NCBI GenBank assembly: GCA_029260935.1
Contig: JAJDCJ010000008.1
Location: 3,905-67,904, forward strand
DNA from: Patescibacteria group bacterium
GTDB lineage: Bacteria > Patescibacteriota > Minisyncoccia > Phycocordibacterales > Phycocordibacteraceae
Length of the DNA: 64,000 nt
Direction of reading: 5' to 3'
Below, one piece after another: positions 8,888 to 58,204 of the stretch. The position numbers and the translations under genes were made by a program. Below the pieces are notes generated by a model. That model was not told where the DNA came from and ran no database searches. It saw only the letters and a list, made by a program, of their open reading frames with translations. Each line of letters starts with the position of its first letter. Position 1 is the stretch's first letter.

Positions 8888-10090
8888 ATGCTCAAAAAAT
8901 TCGCCTCATTCTTTCTCTACAACAACCTTGTGCCGATTATCTTCGGGGTTCTCTTTCTTGGCGCAGGCGCAACATTTGCCGCCTCACCCGAAGCGCGCGA
9001 CGTGGTGTTTAGCGCGCAGGCGGTGGTAGCTTCGGTTGATAATGCATACATCATTTCCGCTGACATCGACGCCTATCCGTTTGACATTCAAATTACAGAC
9101 ATTGCCGAAAGTGACACACACTATTTCATCACCTACACACTGGCAACTATTGATCTTGCAGAAGGGGTATGGCGCGACGTAGTAAAGGCGCGCACGCTTG
9201 AAGTTGAAAAAGCGGTGTTGGCGGGGCGCGACTTGGGTGTGTATGCGGCGCGCCAGCTTTCCGAAACAAGAGATGCCGAACATGCGCGCCTCGTAGAAAC
9301 GCAGAAGATAGAAAAGGACCTAGGCAAGCAACAAAAAATAGTGGCAACGGTGTACGGCGGATTGGTAGGGAGGATGCTTGAACCCAGCGAGGAGGTGTTT
9401 ACAGGATACACACCGGTTGTTTCAGAACCAATTCCTACAGGGGTGGTTGCAGGTGATGGTGGGGGGAGTACAGGTGCGGGCACTGCAGTACCCGCACCTG
9501 ACCCGCGCGCCGCGGAAGCGGCGCGCCTTGCCGCGCTTGAAGCACGCATTTCTTCGCTTGAATCCGCCCTCGCTTCCGGCAGCACCTCTGCCACCCCCAC
9601 TGATGGACGTCGGACGTCCATCAGTGGGGGTGGGGACACCGAAGCTCCCGTCATTACCGTGAACGGCAATAACCCAGCGACCATCAATGTGGGCGACACC
9701 TACGCCGACCTCGGCGCAAGCGTCACCGACAACATTGATCAAAACATCGGCATCCACACCTTTGTTGACGGCAACGAAGTAACTACCGTAGCTTTGGATA
9801 CCAGCACCTCAACCACATACACTATTGTATATAAAGCAACTGACACTTCAGGAAATGTGGGAGAGGCAACACGCACCGTCGTTGTGGGAGGAGCTCAACC
9901 AGGAGCGGAACCACCAACCGTGGTACCTGAAACGCCACCGGCTTCACCTACTGCAACTTCAACACCCGCAACCCCTCCTCCTGAACCTGCCGCAACGTCC
10001 ACCCCTCCGACGAGCCCTCTTCCAGCTGTAGAAACAACTCCACCACCACCCGCAACCATAACCGGCACCACCACGCCAGAATCAATCTAA
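8888..10090 (+). CDS. Secreted protein with a signal peptide, a coiled coil, an Ig-like (DUF5011-like) module and a Pro/Thr-rich tail. The C-terminal cassette is near-identical to that of ORF1.
   Basis: 400 aa. N-terminal hydrophobic 'LVPIIFGVLFLGAGATFA'. The segment 'SLESALASG...DTEAPVITVNGNNPATINVGDTYADLGASVTDNIDQNIGIHTF...EATRTVVVG' shares roughly 90% nucleotide identity with 2830-3160. Confidence 0.75.
   Translation: MLKKFASFFLYNNLVPIIFGVLFLGAGATFAASPEARDVVFSAQAVVASVDNAYIISADIDAYPFDIQITDIAESDTHYFITYTLATIDLAEGVWRDVVKARTLEVEKAVLAGRDLGVYAARQLSETRDAEHARLVETQKIEKDLGKQQKIVATVYGGLVGRMLEPSEEVFTGYTPVVSEPIPTGVVAGDGGGSTGAGTAVPAPDPRAAEAARLAALEARISSLESALASGSTSATPTDGRRTSISGGGDTEAPVITVNGNNPATINVGDTYADLGASVTDNIDQNIGIHTFVDGNEVTTVALDTSTSTTYTIVYKATDTSGNVGEATRTVVVGGAQPGAEPPTVVPETPPASPTATSTPATPPPEPAATSTPPTSPLPAVETTPPPPATITGTTTPESI
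9595..9629. repeat. REP-A palindromic element (ccccactgatgGACGTCGGACGTCcatcagtgggg), in-frame inside CDS 8888-10090
   Basis: Perfect 35-nt palindrome. Same core as the other REP-A copies. Confidence 0.8.
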
Positions 10091-10104: not shown

Positions 10105-10129
10105 TTTGCGGACGTCGGACGTCCGCAAA
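10105..10129. repeat. REP-A palindromic element (tttgcgGACGTCGGACGTCcgcaaa)
   Basis: Perfect palindrome. Intergenic, 3' of RAYT1. Confidence 0.8.
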
Positions 10130-10159
10130 CCTCGCATTTCCGCCCTTCTTCACCCCTCA

Positions 10160-10204
10160 CACCCAAATAATTATGGACGTCGGACGTCCATAATTATTTG
10201 GGTG
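10160..10204. repeat. REP-A palindromic element with long arms (cacccaaataattatgGACGTCGGACGTCcataattatttgggtg)
   Basis: Perfect 45-nt palindrome immediately 3' of the RAYT1 stop. Confidence 0.8.
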
Positions 10205-10215
10205 TCTGTTGTTAT

Positions 10216-10899
10216 TTATTCTAAAGTAACTCCCGCAACCTCATCAACACTAAACTCTTTTAATGTCTTTGAAACTGATTTTTTATACCCTCCTTCACCA
10301 CCAAAAAACTCAAGAAAAAACTTTCGGTCAGTTACCAACGGAAAGTTTTTCTCTCCTAAATAATCAAGGTGACTGCTCCAGCGATACGTGTTCAGAAAAT
10401 CCAACGCCTTTTTCGGGTGTGCGATGCACTGTTTTCGCCATTCCGGCACTTTTAAATCAAGCGGATTAAAGTGAATGTAGTAGGGGATATAAAGGAAGTG
10501 CGCATCACGCTCAATCAGCACCTTCTTATATTTGCCTTGCCACAATGCCCCACTCCGGTCATATTTCTCATTAAAATACTTTGAGTAGCCCCCATTGAGT
10601 TTTTTCATAAAAAGCGAAATACCATTTTCTACAACCGGCGATAACAGCAGGTGATAGTGGTTCGGCATCAAACAGAAAAAATGCACCTGCACCAACCTCT
10701 CCCGGCTCCTCTCATGATAAGTCTGCGGACGTCGGACGTCCGCAGACGGCTCTGTTGCGCGCCGTAATTGATAATAGGGAAGTACATTGCGGGTATCATT
10801 GAATTCATATATATCGTGAATGAACCGCAAATAATCTCTCTCATCAAGAAAAGTAGTGCGTTTATCAACACCTCTGTTGAGTACATGAAAGAAATCCAT
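10216..10899 (-). CDS. REP-associated tyrosine transposase (RAYT; IS200/IS605 TnpA-like HuH Y1 transposase). The track ORF extends to 10995 by reading through the 5' REP; the likely start is the ATG at 10899.
   Basis: HuH motif 'LMPNHYHLLLSP'. C-terminal Y...Q region 'YSKYFNEKYDRSGALWQGKY'. Length about 228 aa. Flanked by palindromes. Confidence 0.8.
   Translation of the reverse strand: MDFFHVLNRGVDKRTTFLDERDYLRFIHDIYEFNDTRNVLPYYQLRRATEPSADVRRPQTYHERSRERLVQVHFFCLMPNHYHLLLSPVVENGISLFMKKLNGGYSKYFNEKYDRSGALWQGKYKKVLIERDAHFLYIPYYIHFNPLDLKVPEWRKQCIAHPKKALDFLNTYRWSSHLDYLGEKNFPLVTDRKFFLEFFGGEGGYKKSVSKTLKEFSVDEVAGVTLE
10721..10747. repeat. REP-A palindromic element (gtctgcgGACGTCGGACGTCcgcagac) inserted in-frame inside the RAYT1 coding sequence (encodes ..PSADVRRPQT..)
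   Basis: 27-nt perfect palindrome. Its length is a multiple of 3 and the ORF continues through it. Confidence 0.8.
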
Positions 10900-10925
10900 A
10901 CGGCAAGTATATCTCTCTCTTACAG

Positions 10926-10952
10926 ATCTGCGGACGTCGGACGTCCGCAGAT
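10926..10952. repeat. REP-A palindromic element (atctgcgGACGTCGGACGTCcgcagat), 5' of RAYT1
   Basis: Perfect palindrome. Confidence 0.8.
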
Positions 10953-20201: not shown

Positions 20202-20361
20202 CAATACCCCCGCCACTGTCCTAGGACTTCCTAGGACACCTACACATTACAGTGTGAAAAAACCGCGCCATGAGGCGCGTTTTTCTGTTTATACACCTCT
20301 CATGTTTTATGCAAGGCGCCCGTTGATATAATGGAGCTGTTACCAAATAACCATATATACT

Positions 20362-22368: not shown

Positions 22369-22403
22369 CCCCCATTACGGAAGTCTGACTTCCGTAATGG
22401 GGG
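22369..22403. repeat. REP2 palindromic element (cccccATTACGGAAGTCtGACTTCCGTAATggggg)
   Basis: Perfect 35-nt palindrome, one of 4 copies in the window. Confidence 0.8.
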
Positions 22404-22414
22404 CAAGAACCAAT

Positions 22415-22437
22415 ATATGGACGTCCGACGTCCATAT
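22415..22437. repeat. REP-A palindromic element (atatgGACGTCCGACGTCcatat), 12 nt downstream of a REP2 copy
   Basis: Perfect palindrome with the same core. Confidence 0.8.
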
Positions 22438-23211: not shown

Positions 23212-24189
23212 GTGGTTACACTGCTTTTTCTAATGGAGTATATGGAAGAAAAACAACTACAGGAATATAAAGACAATCCAAAGACGGCATTTTTTGCGAG
23301 CGAATACGTACGGGTGCAAAAAGAGCTTGTACGTATTGACGCAATGATTGACAACGACGAGTCTATGCGTGAATTGGCAGAGGAAGAAAGAGACGTGCTT
23401 CAAGTTCAGTTGGACGGGCTCACAGAAAATATGACCGCAATCGTCAAGGAAACAGCTGTTGAAGAGTCAGTCCCCATTGCCGTTATTATGGAAATACGCG
23501 CTGGTGCAGGAGGGGACGAGGCACACATCTTTGCCCATGACCTCCTGACCATGTATGAACGGTTTGCAGAAAAAAATAAATGGGAAGTAAAGCCCATTAA
23601 TGATCTTTCAGTTGAAATAAAAGGAAAGGATGTCTATCAGTCACTTGCATACGAAACTGGTGTTCACAGAGTACAGCGTATTCCAGAAACTGAAAAATCA
23701 GGACGCGTACACACGTCAACCGCCTCCGTTGCCATACTCCCTATTCGCAAGAAAGCAACCATTGAACTCAAGTCCGACGATATCCAAATGGAATTTTCCC
23801 GCTCAGGTGGTGCCGGTGGCCAAAACGTTAATAAGGTGGAAACTGCGGTGCGTGTGGTGCACCTTCCTACCGGTATTGAAGTGCGTAGTGAAGCGGCTCG
23901 AAGTCAGCAAGCAAACCGTGAAAAAGCTCTGCAAATTTTGGAGGCAAAAGTAGAAGCGTTTGTTGAAGAGGAGGCAGCTAAAAAACACGCAGAGGTAAGG
24001 CGGAATCAGATTGGCACAGGGGATAGGAGTGAGAAAATACGTACTTACAACTTCCTCCAGGACAGGGTCACTGATCATCGTATAAAAAAGAACTGGCACA
24101 ATATAGAGGGTATTATGGCAGGTGAAATAGACACCATGCTTAGTGATCTTCACAATGAGGCACAGGCGCTCAAGATGGACAATACTTAA
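23212..24189 (+). CDS. prfA: Peptide chain release factor 1. The start may be one of the downstream in-frame ATGs at 23233 or 23242.
   Basis: GGQ motif '[28 protein letters not shown]'. '[20 protein letters not shown]' C-terminal motif. Confidence 0.85.
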
Positions 24190-24198
24190 TGACCCTCT

Positions 24199-24270
24199 AA
24201 CCCTCAATCTAACCCTCAATCTTTATTATCAGGGTATTTATCTCTACTGAAGGTACCCAACCCTCAATCT
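24199..24270. repeat. Three copies of the 12-mer AACCCTCAATCT, two tandem and one 37 nt downstream, between prfA and RAYT2
   Basis: Direct repeats at 24199-24210, 24211-24222 and 24259-24270. Confidence 0.6.
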
Positions 24271-24287
24271 CTACCTCAGTACTCTAT

Positions 24288-24335
24288 TTGTGCAACACTC
24301 GGTGTTGCACAAACCGAGTGTTGCACAAATTTGTT
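24288..24335. repeat. REP-B palindromic cluster 3' of RAYT2 (ttgtGCAACACTCGGTGTTGCacaa, then a second nested copy GTGTTGCACAAA + ccgagtg stem)
   Basis: 25-nt perfect palindrome followed by a direct repeat of GTGTTGCACAAA and a nested 7-bp stem. Confidence 0.7.
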
Positions 24336-24353
24336 GGCGTCAGTCTTAGAATT

Positions 24354-25007
24354 TTAGTCAATGACAAACGATTCCTTTGCAGGATTTGTTTGTACATATT
24401 CCTTATATGCTTTGGTGTCTTTAAATTGATCCAAGAGTATAGATGTGTCTATGAGCGGGTGAAGTCGAGTGTCTCCCAGGTAGTCGCGATAGCTGGACCA
24501 TGTAAAGGAGTGTTCTTTCCCTCGAACACCTGCAATTTCTCGAGGGTTTTTATGAATGTAGGCCGAGACATGTAGCAACTGCTCATTATTTTCTATATGC
24601 ACAGCTTTAAATGGCCCCTGAAAAAGATGGCCGACATGTTTGTATTTAGTGTTGAAGTACTTAGTATAAGCATTTAAAATACGTTGCATGTAACGCGAGA
24701 TGCCCCCATCTTCCCTCTCACCTACAAGCCAATGTATGTGATTAGGCATAAGTGCAAAGGTAAGTAGTGAAATATATCTTTTTTCTGTAATGACTTTGTA
24801 CGTGTCATCAATAACATTCCAATGTTTGTTAATTCTGAACGAAGTGGCGTGGCGAGAAATATTTTTAAAATCAATTGGAGAAACAAGATGTGTCATCAAA
24901 AATAGGAAGCGGAAGCGATCACTGTCGTCATAGAAAATATCCTGTTTGTTGTTGCCGCGAACCATCAGGTGGTAGTACTCTCCTGGTGCAAAATCAATAT
25001 TCCTCAT
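24354..25007 (-). CDS. Second REP-associated tyrosine transposase (RAYT; IS200/IS605 TnpA-like). The track ORF extends to 25055 through the 5' palindrome; the likely start is the ATG at 25007.
   Basis: HuH motif 'LMPNHIHWLVGE'. 'YYHLMVRGNNKQDIF' N-terminal block. C-terminal 'YIHKNP...WSSYRDY'. Flanked by REP-B palindromes on both sides. Confidence 0.75.
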   Translation of the reverse strand: MRNIDFAPGEYYHLMVRGNNKQDIFYDDSDRFRFLFLMTHLVSPIDFKNISRHATSFRINKHWNVIDDTYKVITEKRYISLLTFALMPNHIHWLVGEREDGGISRYMQRILNAYTKYFNTKYKHVGHLFQGPFKAVHIENNEQLLHVSAYIHKNPREIAGVRGKEHSFTWSSYRDYLGDTRLHPLIDTSILLDQFKDTKAYKEYVQTNPAKESFVID

Positions 25008-25026
25008 ATGTTTAATCCTACCATCG

Positions 25027-25059
25027 TAAAGTGTGCAACACTCGGTGTTGCACACTTTA
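25027..25059. repeat. REP-B palindromic element 5' of RAYT2 (taaagtGTGCAACACTCGGTGTTGCACacttta)
   Basis: Perfect 33-nt palindrome with the same core as 24288-24312. Confidence 0.8.
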
Positions 25060-25113
25060 CCTATATACAGTTGAGGTTTTGATTATGAGGGACGTTGCTT
25101 AAAACGGCTTGCT

Positions 25114-25860
25114 ATGGTACATTTTTCGGACATGTTGGATCAAAAGACAGACGAGAAAAAAAACGGCTTTGTGTCAGCTTTGTTTGAAGTGGGGGCGCAT
25201 TTTGGTTACTCACGCGCACGTCGCCATGCTTCAATGAAAGACGTCATTTTCGGCTCAAAAGGAAAGACCGATATTATTGACCTCAACCAGACGTCTCTCA
25301 TGCTTGAGGAGGCGTTGACATTTGTACGCGCACTTGGCGCATCTAAAAAGAAAATTCTTTTTGTTGGCGGTAAGCCTGAGATCCGCGACCTCGTGCGAGA
25401 AAATGCAGAAACACTCAATATGCACTATGTTGCCGGTCGCTGGATCGGAGGCACTCTCACTAATTTTTCTGAAATTAAAAAGCGTGTTGATCGTCACGCT
25501 GAACTTACTGTAGACCGTGAAGCAGGAACGCTGGCTAAAAAATATACAAAAAAGGAACGAGTATTACTGAACCGCGAAATTGCAAAATTAGAAACATTTT
25601 TCGGTGGGCTCTCAGGTATTGAACGTCTCCCTGATGCGCTCGTTGTCATTGATACACGCGCTGAAAATATTGCAGTGAGTGAGGCAAACAACCTCGGTAT
25701 TCCTGTAATCGGTTTACTCAACTCAGACGGTGACCGCTCACAAATATCACACCCGATAGTTGCAAACGATGCTTCCAGAAAGAGTGTGCTATTTTTCCTT
25801 ACGTCAATTGTTGGTGCATACCGCGAAGGTGCCGAAGGAGCTGTTGAGGCAACTACGTAG
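25114..25860 (+). CDS. rpsB: 30S ribosomal protein S2
   Basis: 'LFEVGAHFGYSRARRHASMKDVIFG' and 'LFVGGKPE' S2 motifs. Confidence 0.9.
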   Translation: MVHFSDMLDQKTDEKKNGFVSALFEVGAHFGYSRARRHASMKDVIFGSKGKTDIIDLNQTSLMLEEALTFVRALGASKKKILFVGGKPEIRDLVRENAETLNMHYVAGRWIGGTLTNFSEIKKRVDRHAELTVDREAGTLAKKYTKKERVLLNREIAKLETFFGGLSGIERLPDALVVIDTRAENIAVSEANNLGIPVIGLLNSDGDRSQISHPIVANDASRKSVLFFLTSIVGAYREGAEGAVEATT

Positions 25861-30729: not shown

Positions 30730-30756
30730 GAAATATGGACACGGCGTGTCCATATT
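30730..30756. repeat. REP-like palindrome, variant core (aaatatGGACACGgCGTGTCCatattt)
   Basis: Perfect 27-nt palindrome, intergenic between pheS-like and gyrB. Same ATATGGAC...GTCCATAT arm style as the REP-A copy at 22415. Confidence 0.7.
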
Positions 30757-30887
30757 TTATCAAAGGGGAAAAGTGAAGGAAAAAGAAGAAACATACCACT
30801 AAAAATTACTGAAAAACCACTGTAGAAAACAGAGATTTTTGCTCTATAGAGTGATATAATAAAGGGGCGCACAGAGCGTTATTTTTT

Positions 30888-39955: not shown

Positions 39956-39994
39956 CCCCCCCATTACGGAAGTCTGACTTCCGTAATGGGGGGG
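39956..39994. repeat. REP2 palindromic element (7-C/G arms), followed at 40009-40022 by a REP-A core
   Basis: Perfect palindrome ccccccc-ATTACGGAAGTCtGACTTCCGTAAT-ggggggg. Confidence 0.8.
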
Positions 39995-42279: not shown

Positions 42280-42316
42280 CCCCCCATTACGGAAGTCTGA
42301 CTTCCGTAATGGGGGG
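42280..42316. repeat. REP2 palindromic element, followed at 42331-42344 by a degenerate REP-A core (GGACGCCCAACGTC)
   Basis: Perfect palindrome with 6-C/G arms. The downstream 29 nt match the sequence following the 39956 copy. Confidence 0.8.
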
Positions 42317-52170: not shown

Positions 52171-52310
52171 CGAGGCGCTAGGTGACAGAAAAATTAGGAC
52201 ATCCGATGTCCTAATATGACAAGGCGAGGCGCTAGGTAACAGGTGACACACATAAGAAAAATTAGGACATCCGATGTCCTAATATACCAGAGGCCCGGGC
52301 CTCTGGTATA
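52171..52310. repeat. Intergenic repeat block: a two-unit tandem repeat (gcgaggcgctaggtRacag...aaaaATTAGGACATCcGATGTCCTAATat), each unit with a 23-nt palindrome, followed by a 28-nt perfect palindrome TATACCAGAGGCCCGGGCCTCTGGTATA
   Basis: Palindromes at 52193-52215, 52261-52283 and 52283-52310. Direct repeats at about 52171-52190 and 52223-52243. Confidence 0.75.
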
Positions 52311-52377
52311 TTGCTATTAAAACTAAACCCTCAACTCTAAAACAAACCTCAAAAAAAGAGTCTGTATAATAGGGTGT

Positions 52378-54242: not shown

Positions 54243-54331
54243 TATCCTTTCTCCAAAATGTTTTCTATTCTTTTCTTCTCACAAAACTGCCAACTCTAAA
54301 AACTATCAAGAGCAGTCTTGTGAATGTGAAA

Positions 54332-54380
54332 GAAACCCCTCCCATTACGGAAGTCTGACTTCCGTAATGGGAGGGGTTTC
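54332..54380. repeat. REP2 palindromic element with extended arms (gaaacccctccc-ATTACGGAAGTCtGACTTCCGTAAT-gggaggggtttc)
   Basis: Perfect 49-nt palindrome between convergent genes. Confidence 0.8.
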
Positions 54381-54555
54381 TCAGCGTTTTATTTCACTGT
54401 GATTTCCACAGTTTTTTCGCTAGGAGTGTCACGCCTTCTCTTTCTTTGTAGCAAAACTTGATATATCAAGTTTTGCTTTAATGTTATTTACTGGAGGCAC
54501 TGGTCGTGAATAAACAAGGTTAAGTTAGAGTAAAAAACATCTATACAAGTAGTTT

Positions 54556-57553: not shown

Positions 57554-58204
57554 ATGAACATCATGCACTTTCACGTTATAACACTCTTTCCAGAAGCGTT
57601 TGAATCCTACATCCACGCGTCAATTGTTGGACGCGCTATTCGTGATAAAAAAATAAAAATATCGTTTTATAACCCTCGCGATTTTGCAAAAAACAAACAC
57701 CGCCGTGTTGACCAAAAACCCTATGGTGGTGGCCCCGGCATGGTGATGGAGGCAGAAAGCGTGTTGCGCGCCACCGAAAAGGCAATCGGGAAAAAGAAAG
57801 ATGTTGAGGTTATTTTCTTTGATACCGGAGGCACAGAGTTTACCAACACTTCTGCACGTAAGATTGTCAAAAAAAATAAACACGTCGTGTTTATATGTGG
57901 CCATTATGAAGGTATAGATGCACGGGTACAGAAAATACTCAAAGCTAAAAAAGTTTCAATAGGAAATTACACGCTCACCGGTGGCGAACTTCCGGCGTTG
58001 GTAGTGATTGACGCAGTATCAAGACAAATAAAAGGCGTGCTTGGAAATTATGATTCACTTGAAGACGACCGCATTTCAAGCTCTGAAGTCTATACCCGAC
58101 CCGAAACACTGGTATGGAAAGGGAAGAGGCATACCGTGCCAAAAGTGCTCTTGTCTGGCAACCACGCCGAAATAGAAAAGTGGAAACAAAACAAAGCCCC
58201 CTAA
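57554..58204 (+). CDS. trmD: tRNA (guanine37-N1)-methyltransferase
   Basis: 'MHFHVITLFPEAFESY...KPYGGGPGMVM' and 'ICGHYEGIDARV'. Confidence 0.9.
   Translation: MNIMHFHVITLFPEAFESYIHASIVGRAIRDKKIKISFYNPRDFAKNKHRRVDQKPYGGGPGMVMEAESVLRATEKAIGKKKDVEVIFFDTGGTEFTNTSARKIVKKNKHVVFICGHYEGIDARVQKILKAKKVSIGNYTLTGGELPALVVIDAVSRQIKGVLGNYDSLEDDRISSSEVYTRPETLVWKGKRHTVPKVLLSGNHAEIEKWKQNKAP

Follow-up and report, generated by a model that had tools for sequence, protein, structure and literature searches.

A RAYT-like HUH/Y1 gene bracketed by two cognate hairpins in Patescibacteria: a probable low-copy REPtron-type locus

A stretch of 64,000 nucleotides from contig JAJDCJ010000008.1 of a Patescibacteria group bacterium (hereafter, the window) carries a gene, called Y1B in the following, predicted to code for a HUH/Y1 endonuclease of single-stranded DNA (ssDNA), related to the tyrosine transposases associated with repetitive extragenic palindromes (REPs), known as RAYTs. 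The gene lies between two copies of a perfect palindrome, called REP-B. The locus is probably of the REPtron type, that is, a low-copy and probably domesticated RAYT-like HUH/Y1 gene bracketed by two cognate hairpins: it is the coupling of a cognate hairpin with a low-copy, divergent class 2 Y1 enzyme that points to a REPtron-like system. The features of the locus are the following.

24354 to 25007, minus strand: Y1B gene, 217-aa HUH/Y1 ssDNA endonuclease (predicted), RAYT-like class 2
25026 to 25060, no strand assigned: upstream cognate hairpin GTAAAGT-GTGCAACAC-TCG-GTGTTGCAC-ACTTTAC, 35 nt, perfect 16+3+16
24286 to 24330, no strand assigned: downstream composite element, a hairpin plus a third arm, beginning 24 nt after the Y1B stop codon
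24287 to 24313: inner downstream hairpin TTT-GTGCAACAC-TCG-GTGTTGCAC-AAA, perfect 12+3+12
24313 to 24330: additional right arm with inverted loop, ACCGA-GTGTTGCACAAA, with GTGTTGCACAAA itself at 24318-24329

Both flanks of Y1B share the palindrome T-GTGCAACAC-TCG-GTGTTGCAC-A, whose core is TGTGCAACAC-N3-GTGTTGCACA in motif notation. In the upstream hairpin, the conserved 23-nt core occupies positions 25032-25054, 18 nt separate the stem from the Y1B ATG, and the sequence, folded as ssDNA, reaches -17.2 kcal/mol (z = -8.45). The initial annotation had rightly recognized a perfect palindrome on this side, but had assigned 33 nt to it (25027-25059). On the other side it had described a 25-nt copy with a nested second copy at 24288-24335; the structure found there is a hairpin with a further arm, spanning 24286-24330. 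This composite element (-20.9 kcal/mol as ssDNA, z = -6.8) allows two mutually exclusive folds, a 12-bp stem with a 3-nt loop or an 18-bp stem with a 9-nt loop. An extra half-site beside a full hairpin is also present in loci L012, L014, L020, L022, L025, L030, L038 and L077.

The REP-B 21-mer occurs in the window at 24290 and 25033 only, in agreement with the earlier statement that no further full copy is present; 0.00 occurrences are expected from shuffled sequences. Candidate REP-B-like sites at 57879 (within a TrmD-like open reading frame (ORF), coding KHVVF), 30651 and 30731 were rejected, their stems being short or different. An Rfam search of region 23900-25300 only returned sub-threshold, miRNA-like hairpin noise. 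The many other perfect palindromes of the window could suggest a chance juxtaposition of ORF and palindromes in a palindrome-rich genome; given the null expectation for the 21-mer, and a bracket that recurs, with covariation, in most of 93 homologous loci, this explanation may safely be set aside.

The Y1B ORF starts at an ATG (25005-25007) and ends at a TAA (24354-24356). A longer ORF, starting at a GTG and reading through the upstream palindrome ('VCNTECCT'), was discarded as spurious, homologues beginning with MR(N/K)I or MPLR. The HUH motif MPNHIHWLV, already reported together with a RAYT-like nature of the product, corresponds to aa 87-95 (H90, H92), and the tyrosine motif YIHKNP to aa 150-155, Y150 being the catalytic residue; motifs, Y---NP spacing and a fold of the TnpA_REP type all bear that description out. 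HUH plus a single Tyr within Y-x3-N-P place Y1B under the signature of class 2 TnpA_Y1, i.e. TnpA_REP/RAYT (PMC6006769). The protein was aligned with 36 homologues, 48-66% identical to it. Invariant positions are Y12, H13, R17, G18, M87, N89, H90, H92, a GHLFQGP block, Y150, H152 and N154, as well as W170, S171 and S172 in the WSSY motif of a C-terminal extension. The invariance of the catalytic His and Tyr favours an enzyme that has kept its nuclease chemistry over one that only binds.

Pfam Y1_Tnp matches the protein with E = 1.4e-11 and 45 bits (cut-off 23). The IS200 transposase profile NF033573 does not match it, and gives two weak matches (E = 0.005) among the 36 relatives. An AlphaFold2 model (predicted local distance difference test score 91.9, predicted template modelling score 0.89) was compared by Foldseek with the structures in the PDB: the top match is 4ER8_A, E. 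coli TnpA_REP with its REP hairpin (E = 1.9e-6, TM-score 0.64 on the target), followed by the TnpA proteins of ISDra2 and IS608 (E about 4e-4). These results support Y1B as a RAYT-like class 2 Y1 HUH enzyme. The family is large, with over 2000 word-index matches, nearly all of them singleton clusters at 90% identity with names from metagenome-assembled genomes of the Parcubacteria group; a profile search returned 783 representatives, at 50% identity, with E values of 1e-30 or lower.

The bracketing was analyzed in 93 Y1B-type units, comprising 80 metagenome loci, the genome loci, locus L193 and the window. For each unit, the best 10+3+10 hairpin was scored within 90 nt upstream and within 70 nt downstream, and random windows from the same loci were used as controls. 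All ten pairs are formed upstream in 46 units and downstream in 42, nine pairs in 24 and 27, respectively. A homologous upstream hairpin with at least 9/10 pairs is found in 70/90 related loci; the same threshold is reached on both sides in 56/86 loci and on at least one side in 78/86, while only 5/436 control windows (about 1%) attain it. The two-sided cognate hairpin, claimed beforehand for the window gene, is the rule for the whole Y1B family. Distant Y1 paralogues (30-37% identity), including Y1A, a second Y1 gene of the window, are likewise bracketed, by entirely different perfect hairpins.

The flanking hairpins of the family feature perfect stems of 10-20 bp and a 3-nt loop, with the consensus TGTnnAACAC-(CGA/TCG/CTG/CAG)-GTGTTnnACA; stem variants are TGGCCAACAC, TGTCAAACAC, TGTTCAACAC, TGTTAAACAC, TGTTGGACAC and TGTCCAAAGC. 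The two arms covary: at sites preselected for at least 8/10 pairs, 94.9% of cells are paired (74.6% after shuffling), double-sided changes are found in 189 cells (53 after shuffling), and compensatory changes occur at all ten pairs. The upstream and downstream stems of one locus agree at 8.8/10 positions, as compared to 6.4 for randomly paired loci. Loop orientations show no fixed relation between the flanks (24 same, 18 inverted); read in gene orientation, upstream loops favour CGA (21 vs 6).

In 56/92 units, a third copy of the unit's own hairpin variant lies within the gene, in-frame, around nucleotide 170 of the ORF, where it codes for aa 57-65 (FVKHSVFNI, FVKNRAFNI, VQHSVLH and similar). 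Internal stems agree with their own flanking stems at 8.6-8.7/10 positions, compared to 6.7 upon random pairing; no permutation out of 2000 exceeded 7.3. No internal hairpin is present in the window Y1B and in its nearest subgroup, the best candidate reaching 6/10 pairs. A 6+2+6 palindrome, AACATT-CC-AATGTT, is located at 24813-24826 within the Y1B ORF, homologous to the internal-copy position; it could be a relic or a chance occurrence. Among the Y1B-hairpin loci of Patescibacteria, that of the window is unexceptional; it has no internal copy, and no solo copy is in view.

Distances from the gene are nearly constant. The upstream core mostly ends 28 nt (mode), or 11-16 nt, before the ATG (overall about 11-30 nt), and the downstream core begins 0-12 nt past the stop codon, with a mode of 3 nt. 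Moreover, the same 23-nt core is kept among proteins that are just 43-56% identical. Both observations would suit hairpins that are mainly cis-regulatory or structural, bound but not mobilized by the Y1 protein, and that act as insulators, terminators, mRNA stabilizers or autoregulatory operators, their spread and conservation reflecting a host function. REPs are indeed known as RNA elements (PMC3733652). Against this reading, a promoter and terminator scan of region 24100-25200 yielded nothing above chance, including at the two hairpins, and the invariant catalytic residues favour an active nuclease; further evidence on both sides comes from the copies found elsewhere.

One genome per species was scanned with the pattern GTGCAACAC-N3-GTGTTGCAC, which gave 111 DNA stretches; about 9 sites were expected by our own estimate. 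The exact REP-B core is found at about 96 sites in 54 Patescibacteria assemblies, with 1-8 copies per assembly, mostly solo. These assemblies are labelled Patescibacteria, Paceibacterota, Parcubacteria, Sung-, Vogel-, Taylor-, Kaiser-, Nealson- and Nomurabacteria, and 'Saccharibacteria', the last being an unconfirmed label given by third party annotation assemblies. A few matches in Proteobacteria, Actinobacteria and other groups show random loops, lack the T/A flanks and seem to be chance or conserved coding sequence. In Patescibacteria, the core is T-GTGCAACAC-N3-GTGTTGCAC-A, the T and A flanks being present at 89/98 sites, and the loop is nearly always CTG/CAG, TCG/CGA or TTA/TAA. Loop types are shared within assemblies: of 98 within-assembly pairs, 82 have the same loop type; 29 are expected, and none of 5000 shuffles exceeded 52. 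At most exact-core sites, the 8-kb locus contains no Y1 gene. Assemblies holding both gene-flanking and solo copies are listed here.

JBAYHD: 2 gene-flanking copies, 3 solo copies, loop CTG/CAG
PXPA: 2 gene-flanking copies, 3 solo copies, loop TTA/TAA
CAYIMJ: 2 gene-flanking copies, 2 solo copies, loop CTG/CAG
MHQR: 1 gene-flanking copy, 2 solo copies, loop TCG/CGA
JAYEGE: 2 gene-flanking copies, 1 solo copy, loop TTA/TAA
JAJXUR: 2 gene-flanking copies, 1 solo copy, loop CTG/CAG

At 27/98 sites (fewer than 2 expected), the palindrome is lengthened by 4-13 site-specific bp. Such arm extensions possibly result from insertion into the loops of pre-existing hairpins such as terminators, as for AAAGCCCC..GGGGCTTT in L089; a template-switch 'palindromisation' is another possible cause. 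In the 8-copy assembly JBASFO, two solo REP-B sites (L012 and L061) have about 25 nt of upstream sequence in common, TAGCCCACATCTTACTTTTTACAGAT, which may point to a repeat unit of greater length there.

The REP-B core is stop-free in all frames, and many solo copies lie in-frame within long ORFs, read as CATPGVAQ/H, VQH[RQLS]VLHx or VCNTxCCT. Two ABC-F orthologues, 66% identical (L004 and L037), form a filled/empty pair that differs by a clean insertion of 7 aa (21 nt). In a UvrA protein (L045) the hairpin falls within an insertion of about 23 aa relative to the solved UvrA, and hairpin-containing TsaD, DprA and FemAB-like proteins are 3-5 aa longer than their comparators. Many solo copies feature A-run/T-run extensions, similar to bidirectional terminators (for example L021, L037, L107), in line with a mainly cis-regulatory role, but many copies are in-frame within ORFs, a setting in which a terminator would do harm, and a 21-nt filled/empty polymorphism exists; overall, such a role appears unlikely as the principal explanation. 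Three apparent in-ORF copies (L021, L046, L061) were rejected, the hairpin actually lying upstream of the gene.

In four RVT_1 reverse transcriptases that are orthologous and share 69-77% identity (L006, L043, L073, L105), the hairpin keeps the same position. Its loop is flipped between species, CCA and CCT both coding for Pro in that frame. The core is in-frame (CATPGVAQ/H), directly before the motif GLPLGNLTSQ; motifs of this (L/I)GxxxSQ type are typical of diversity-generating retroelements (DGRs).

The whole 775-bp unit might also be mobile, as a solitary and autonomous mini insertion sequence (IS) similar to IS200, with the hairpins as its ends and the solo hairpins as footprints, left for example when the gene is lost by recombination between identical ends. 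Unit size and layout are similar to those of IS200, and the window holds no solo copies. The closest relative (L193, 66% identical), with slightly degenerate hairpins, lies beside a Phe-tRNA-synthetase-like gene (Pfam tRNA-synt_2d), and not near prfA and rpsB as in the window, where a prfA gene of the RF1 type (23212-24189, plus strand) is convergent to Y1B, rpsB/tsf (from 25114, plus strand) are divergent, and rpmE (L31) is found further left. A release-factor gene, in either orientation, is next to the unit in just about 12% of loci; it adjoins Y1B in 9/80 metagenome loci, and is also near it in L005, L042 and the window.

Other observations argue against a mobile unit. No second similar hairpin-gene-hairpin unit was found in any sampled assembly or in the window: identity between paralogues of one contig is 45-47%, or 29-47% when the window is included, and their hairpins differ. 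Protein clusters are singletons, and units 88-93% identical at the nucleotide level sit at orthologous loci once the flanks are properly aligned. Pairs that seemed to show the same unit within unrelated flanks (L135, L139, L142, L159), and hence recent transposition, proved to be a megablast artefact, MAFFT alignment showing homologous flanks. In addition, profiles and fold group the protein with TnpA_REP and not with IS200 TnpA; the ends are identical perfect palindromes, unlike the distinct, imperfect left-end and right-end hairpins of IS200/IS605; and solo hairpins are in-frame within genes, tsaD, lepA and rsmI among them, that a 775-bp intermediate would disrupt. An autonomous IS200-like element is therefore regarded as improbable, and the history of the units agrees with a long stay in place, interrupted by occasional relocation or rearrangement, and not with an active IS.

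Some loci add detail to this history. In L113, L114, L115, L118, L134 and L137 a release-factor gene ends about 100 nt upstream of Y1B, on the same strand; the remaining release-factor-adjacent loci are L125, L141, L174, L005, L042 and the window. These units carry different hairpin variants at what is seemingly the same locus, which suggests either that the position is old and conserved, both hairpins having changed in situ, or that certain targets are preferred. In L109 (2650-2700 and 3440-3480), both sides of the unit carry the 3' end of an adjacent gene, AAATTCGACGAAGC.GT.GCGGTTGCGAAATAAG (...KFDEAVAVAK*), as a direct duplication of about 34 nt with 2 mismatches; the downstream flank of L104 is listed alongside. 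The duplication might mark an old insertion or rearrangement.

Several results weigh against the REPtron-type assignment. Classical REPs are defined by a 5' GT[AG]G guide tetranucleotide at the foot of the hairpin. REP-B has no such tag, only T and A flanking the stem and the outer sequence being variable, and hence offers no GTAG-type guide to the site of cleavage. The RAYT equivalog profile (NCBIfam NF047646, REP_Tyr_transpos) matches Y1B with E = 5.3e-13, but its 49.1 bits fall below the 80-bit cut-off, and the 36 aligned relatives are all matched below the cut-off, none with a better E value. The RAYT assignment originally proposed is thus retained as RAYT-like, class 2 and with a TnpA_REP fold, while strict membership is not. 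A search of the PDB by sequence alone gave no match with the single protein, and only ISDra2 (E about 0.1) with a profile. Solo copies of REP-B are absent from the 64 kb analyzed, those with a matching loop type being shown in related genomes only, and the copy numbers per assembly are far lower than in classical REP systems. LepA and RsmI proteins containing the hairpin show zero net length change relative to orthologues, so that simple insertion is not the whole story. Symmetric covariation of the stem would be equally expected from a dimeric protein bound to a double-stranded palindrome. Finally, hairpin cleavage and strand transfer are attributed to members of the family by analogy.

If the REPtron-type assignment is correct, Y1B would bind the hairpin extruded on ssDNA, for example on the lagging-strand template, as E. 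coli TnpA_REP and the TnpA proteins of IS608 and ISDra2 do. It would then nick beside the hairpin, via a 5'-phosphotyrosine intermediate, and rejoin the strands, again by analogy with those enzymes (PMC3479197, PMC8266576). Through rejoining, the short hairpin could be copied or re-homogenized in trans at new sites, while the gene would stay put and be passed on mainly by vertical inheritance. A further probable role of the flanking hairpins is in insulating or terminating transcription near the gene.

A bolder proposal, which we consider possible but doubtful, is that the mobile unit is the bare 21-23-nt hairpin, copy-pasted or converted on ssDNA by the resident Y1 enzyme, which would keep all copies identical down to the loop and drive the growth of the arms, in an ancient, vertically inherited partnership of enzyme and hairpin. 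The copies so homogenized may include both flanks, the in-ORF copy and the solo copies (uvrA, lepA, tsaD, DGR-type reverse transcriptases). If true, few known mobile DNAs would be as small as this hairpin, and the partnership would span much of Patescibacteria, unlike a classical, species-specific REP system.

Among the closest known counterparts of Y1B is E. coli TnpA_REP (RAYT, YafM; 4ER8; PMC3479197, PMC3333891, PMC8266576), a single-domain HUH/Y1 protein as well and its best structural match. The E. coli REPtron is similar also in that the gene is flanked by cognate palindromes, divergent paralogues are few and the palindrome occurs elsewhere in the genome. Nevertheless, the two proteins are only 16% identical, with no significant match by sequence alone. 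Unlike E. coli REPs, the REP-B hairpin lacks GTAG tag and bulge, its 10-16 bp stem being perfect and its loop 3 nt long; groups of perfect-palindrome REPs are, however, known (PMC8266576). REP-B counts 1-8 copies per genome, not hundreds, no doublets of the types called BIME (bacterial interspersed mosaic element) or REPIN were seen, and the core is common to very divergent Patescibacteria, whereas classical REPs are species-specific.

Within class 2 TnpA_Y1 (Quentin et al. 2018, PMC6006769), shared traits are the Y---NP motif, a small number of copies per genome and paralogues of low mutual identity. By description, many Y1B relatives resemble subclass 2.4, with the cognate hairpin in-frame in their own gene; the internal copy lies before HUH (aa 57-65) in Y1B relatives, and between HUH and Tyr in subclass 2.4. 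Subclass 2.1/TIRYT, also compared by description, has a C-terminal extension with a conserved Ser, to be set beside the WSSY-containing extension of Y1B, and subclass 2.6, listed among the closest, has atypical flanking structures. That survey, based on complete genomes, makes no mention of Patescibacteria, Parcubacteria or Saccharibacteria.

With IS200/IS605 TnpA (IS608, ISDra2; 2A6O, 2XM3), Y1B units share the HUH/Y1 fold, a compact size of about 0.7 kb and, as a further likeness, subterminal hairpins, which in those elements are recognized on ssDNA; they differ by the lack of multiple identical copies and of a tnpB partner, and by their identical perfect ends. Intragenic REPs and Rickettsia palindromic elements (Di Nocera et al. 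2013, PMC3733652) also lie in-frame in conserved genes, including uvrA, and REP-B is alike in being a short palindrome so placed, uvrA included. It differs in spanning just 21-24 nt (7-8 codons), in having no unpaired GTAG/CGTC tag, and in being tied to a specific Y1 gene.

The window contains further repeats. The 12-mer AACCCTCAATCT is present, as initially reported, in exactly three copies (24199, 24211 and 24259, two in tandem), all in the prfA-Y1B spacer; 0.35 copies were expected, and 1/100 shuffles reached three. The suggested link to REP-B failed on recurrence, the 12-mer being absent from 1.2 Mb of related loci that include 98 REP-B sites and the closest relative, and segment 24199-24270 has no significant fold (z = -1.4). 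A role in the REP-B system was rejected on these grounds, and the repeats are read as a local tandem or dispersed duplication.

The paralogue Y1A (about 10216-10902, minus strand) is 29% identical to Y1B over 215 aa (E = 1e-24), and has palindromes of its own, GGACGTC-G-GACGTCC; the window does hold two distinct pairs of a RAYT-like gene and its palindromes, as had been put forward. In all, about 27 different perfect palindromes whose stems reach 9 bp or more were counted, as compared to about 2 in shuffled sequences, and, with two Y1 genes, the idea of a genome rich in such elements holds as well. The other palindromes are the following.

2866-2892, 9591-9633, 10105-10129, 10159-10205, 10721-10747, 10926-10952, 22415-22437: REP-A copies, core GGACGTC-N-GACGTCC
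22369-22403, 39956-39994, 42280-42316, 54331-54381: third family, CCCATTACGGAAGTC-T-GACTTCCGTAATGGG, stems 17-25 bp
52193-52215, 52261-52283: ATTAGGACATC-C-GATGTCCTAAT, two copies, 68 nt apart
52281-52312: AATATACCAGAGGCC-CG-GGCCTCTGGTATATT
30731-30757: AAATATGGACAC-GGC-GTGTCCATATTT
20217-20238: TGTCCTAGGA-CT-TCCTAGGACA

The approximately seven REP-A copies have site-specific perfect outer arms reaching 23 bp. The copy at 10721-10747 is in-frame within Y1A, directly before its HUH motif, and that at 9591-9633 lies within a long ORF (8888-10090). The core contains CGTC, in the stem, while the CGTC tag of Di Nocera et al. (PMC3733652) is unpaired. For the third family, no matching Y1 gene is present in the window; one copy stands just upstream of rpmE, beside a copy of REP-A.

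Published work already covers REPtrons, REPs that are perfect palindromes, REPs located within genes in general and within RAYT genes in particular (PMC3733652, PMC6006769, PMC8266576), and full-text literature searches found no paper on RAYT/REP systems in the Candidate Phyla Radiation. What is new here is a divergent family, below the RAYT cut-off, that combines an untagged 23-nt perfect hairpin in 1-8 copies, a shared core and a co-evolving internal copy placed before HUH. The Y1B-hairpin loci are a new branch of a known kind of probably domesticated mobile element, and they show that the Candidate Phyla Radiation has RAYT-like systems and has them widely. For the question of how REPs spread, the Y1B family offers a stripped-down case, made of a 23-nt perfect hairpin and a 217-aa enzyme. 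As the genomes are of about 1 Mb and hold a handful of copies, every copy can be tracked, and the natural covariation of stem and enzyme variants should reveal the specificity code. In-frame hairpins in conserved genes matter for the annotation of reduced genomes and for the evolution of their proteins.

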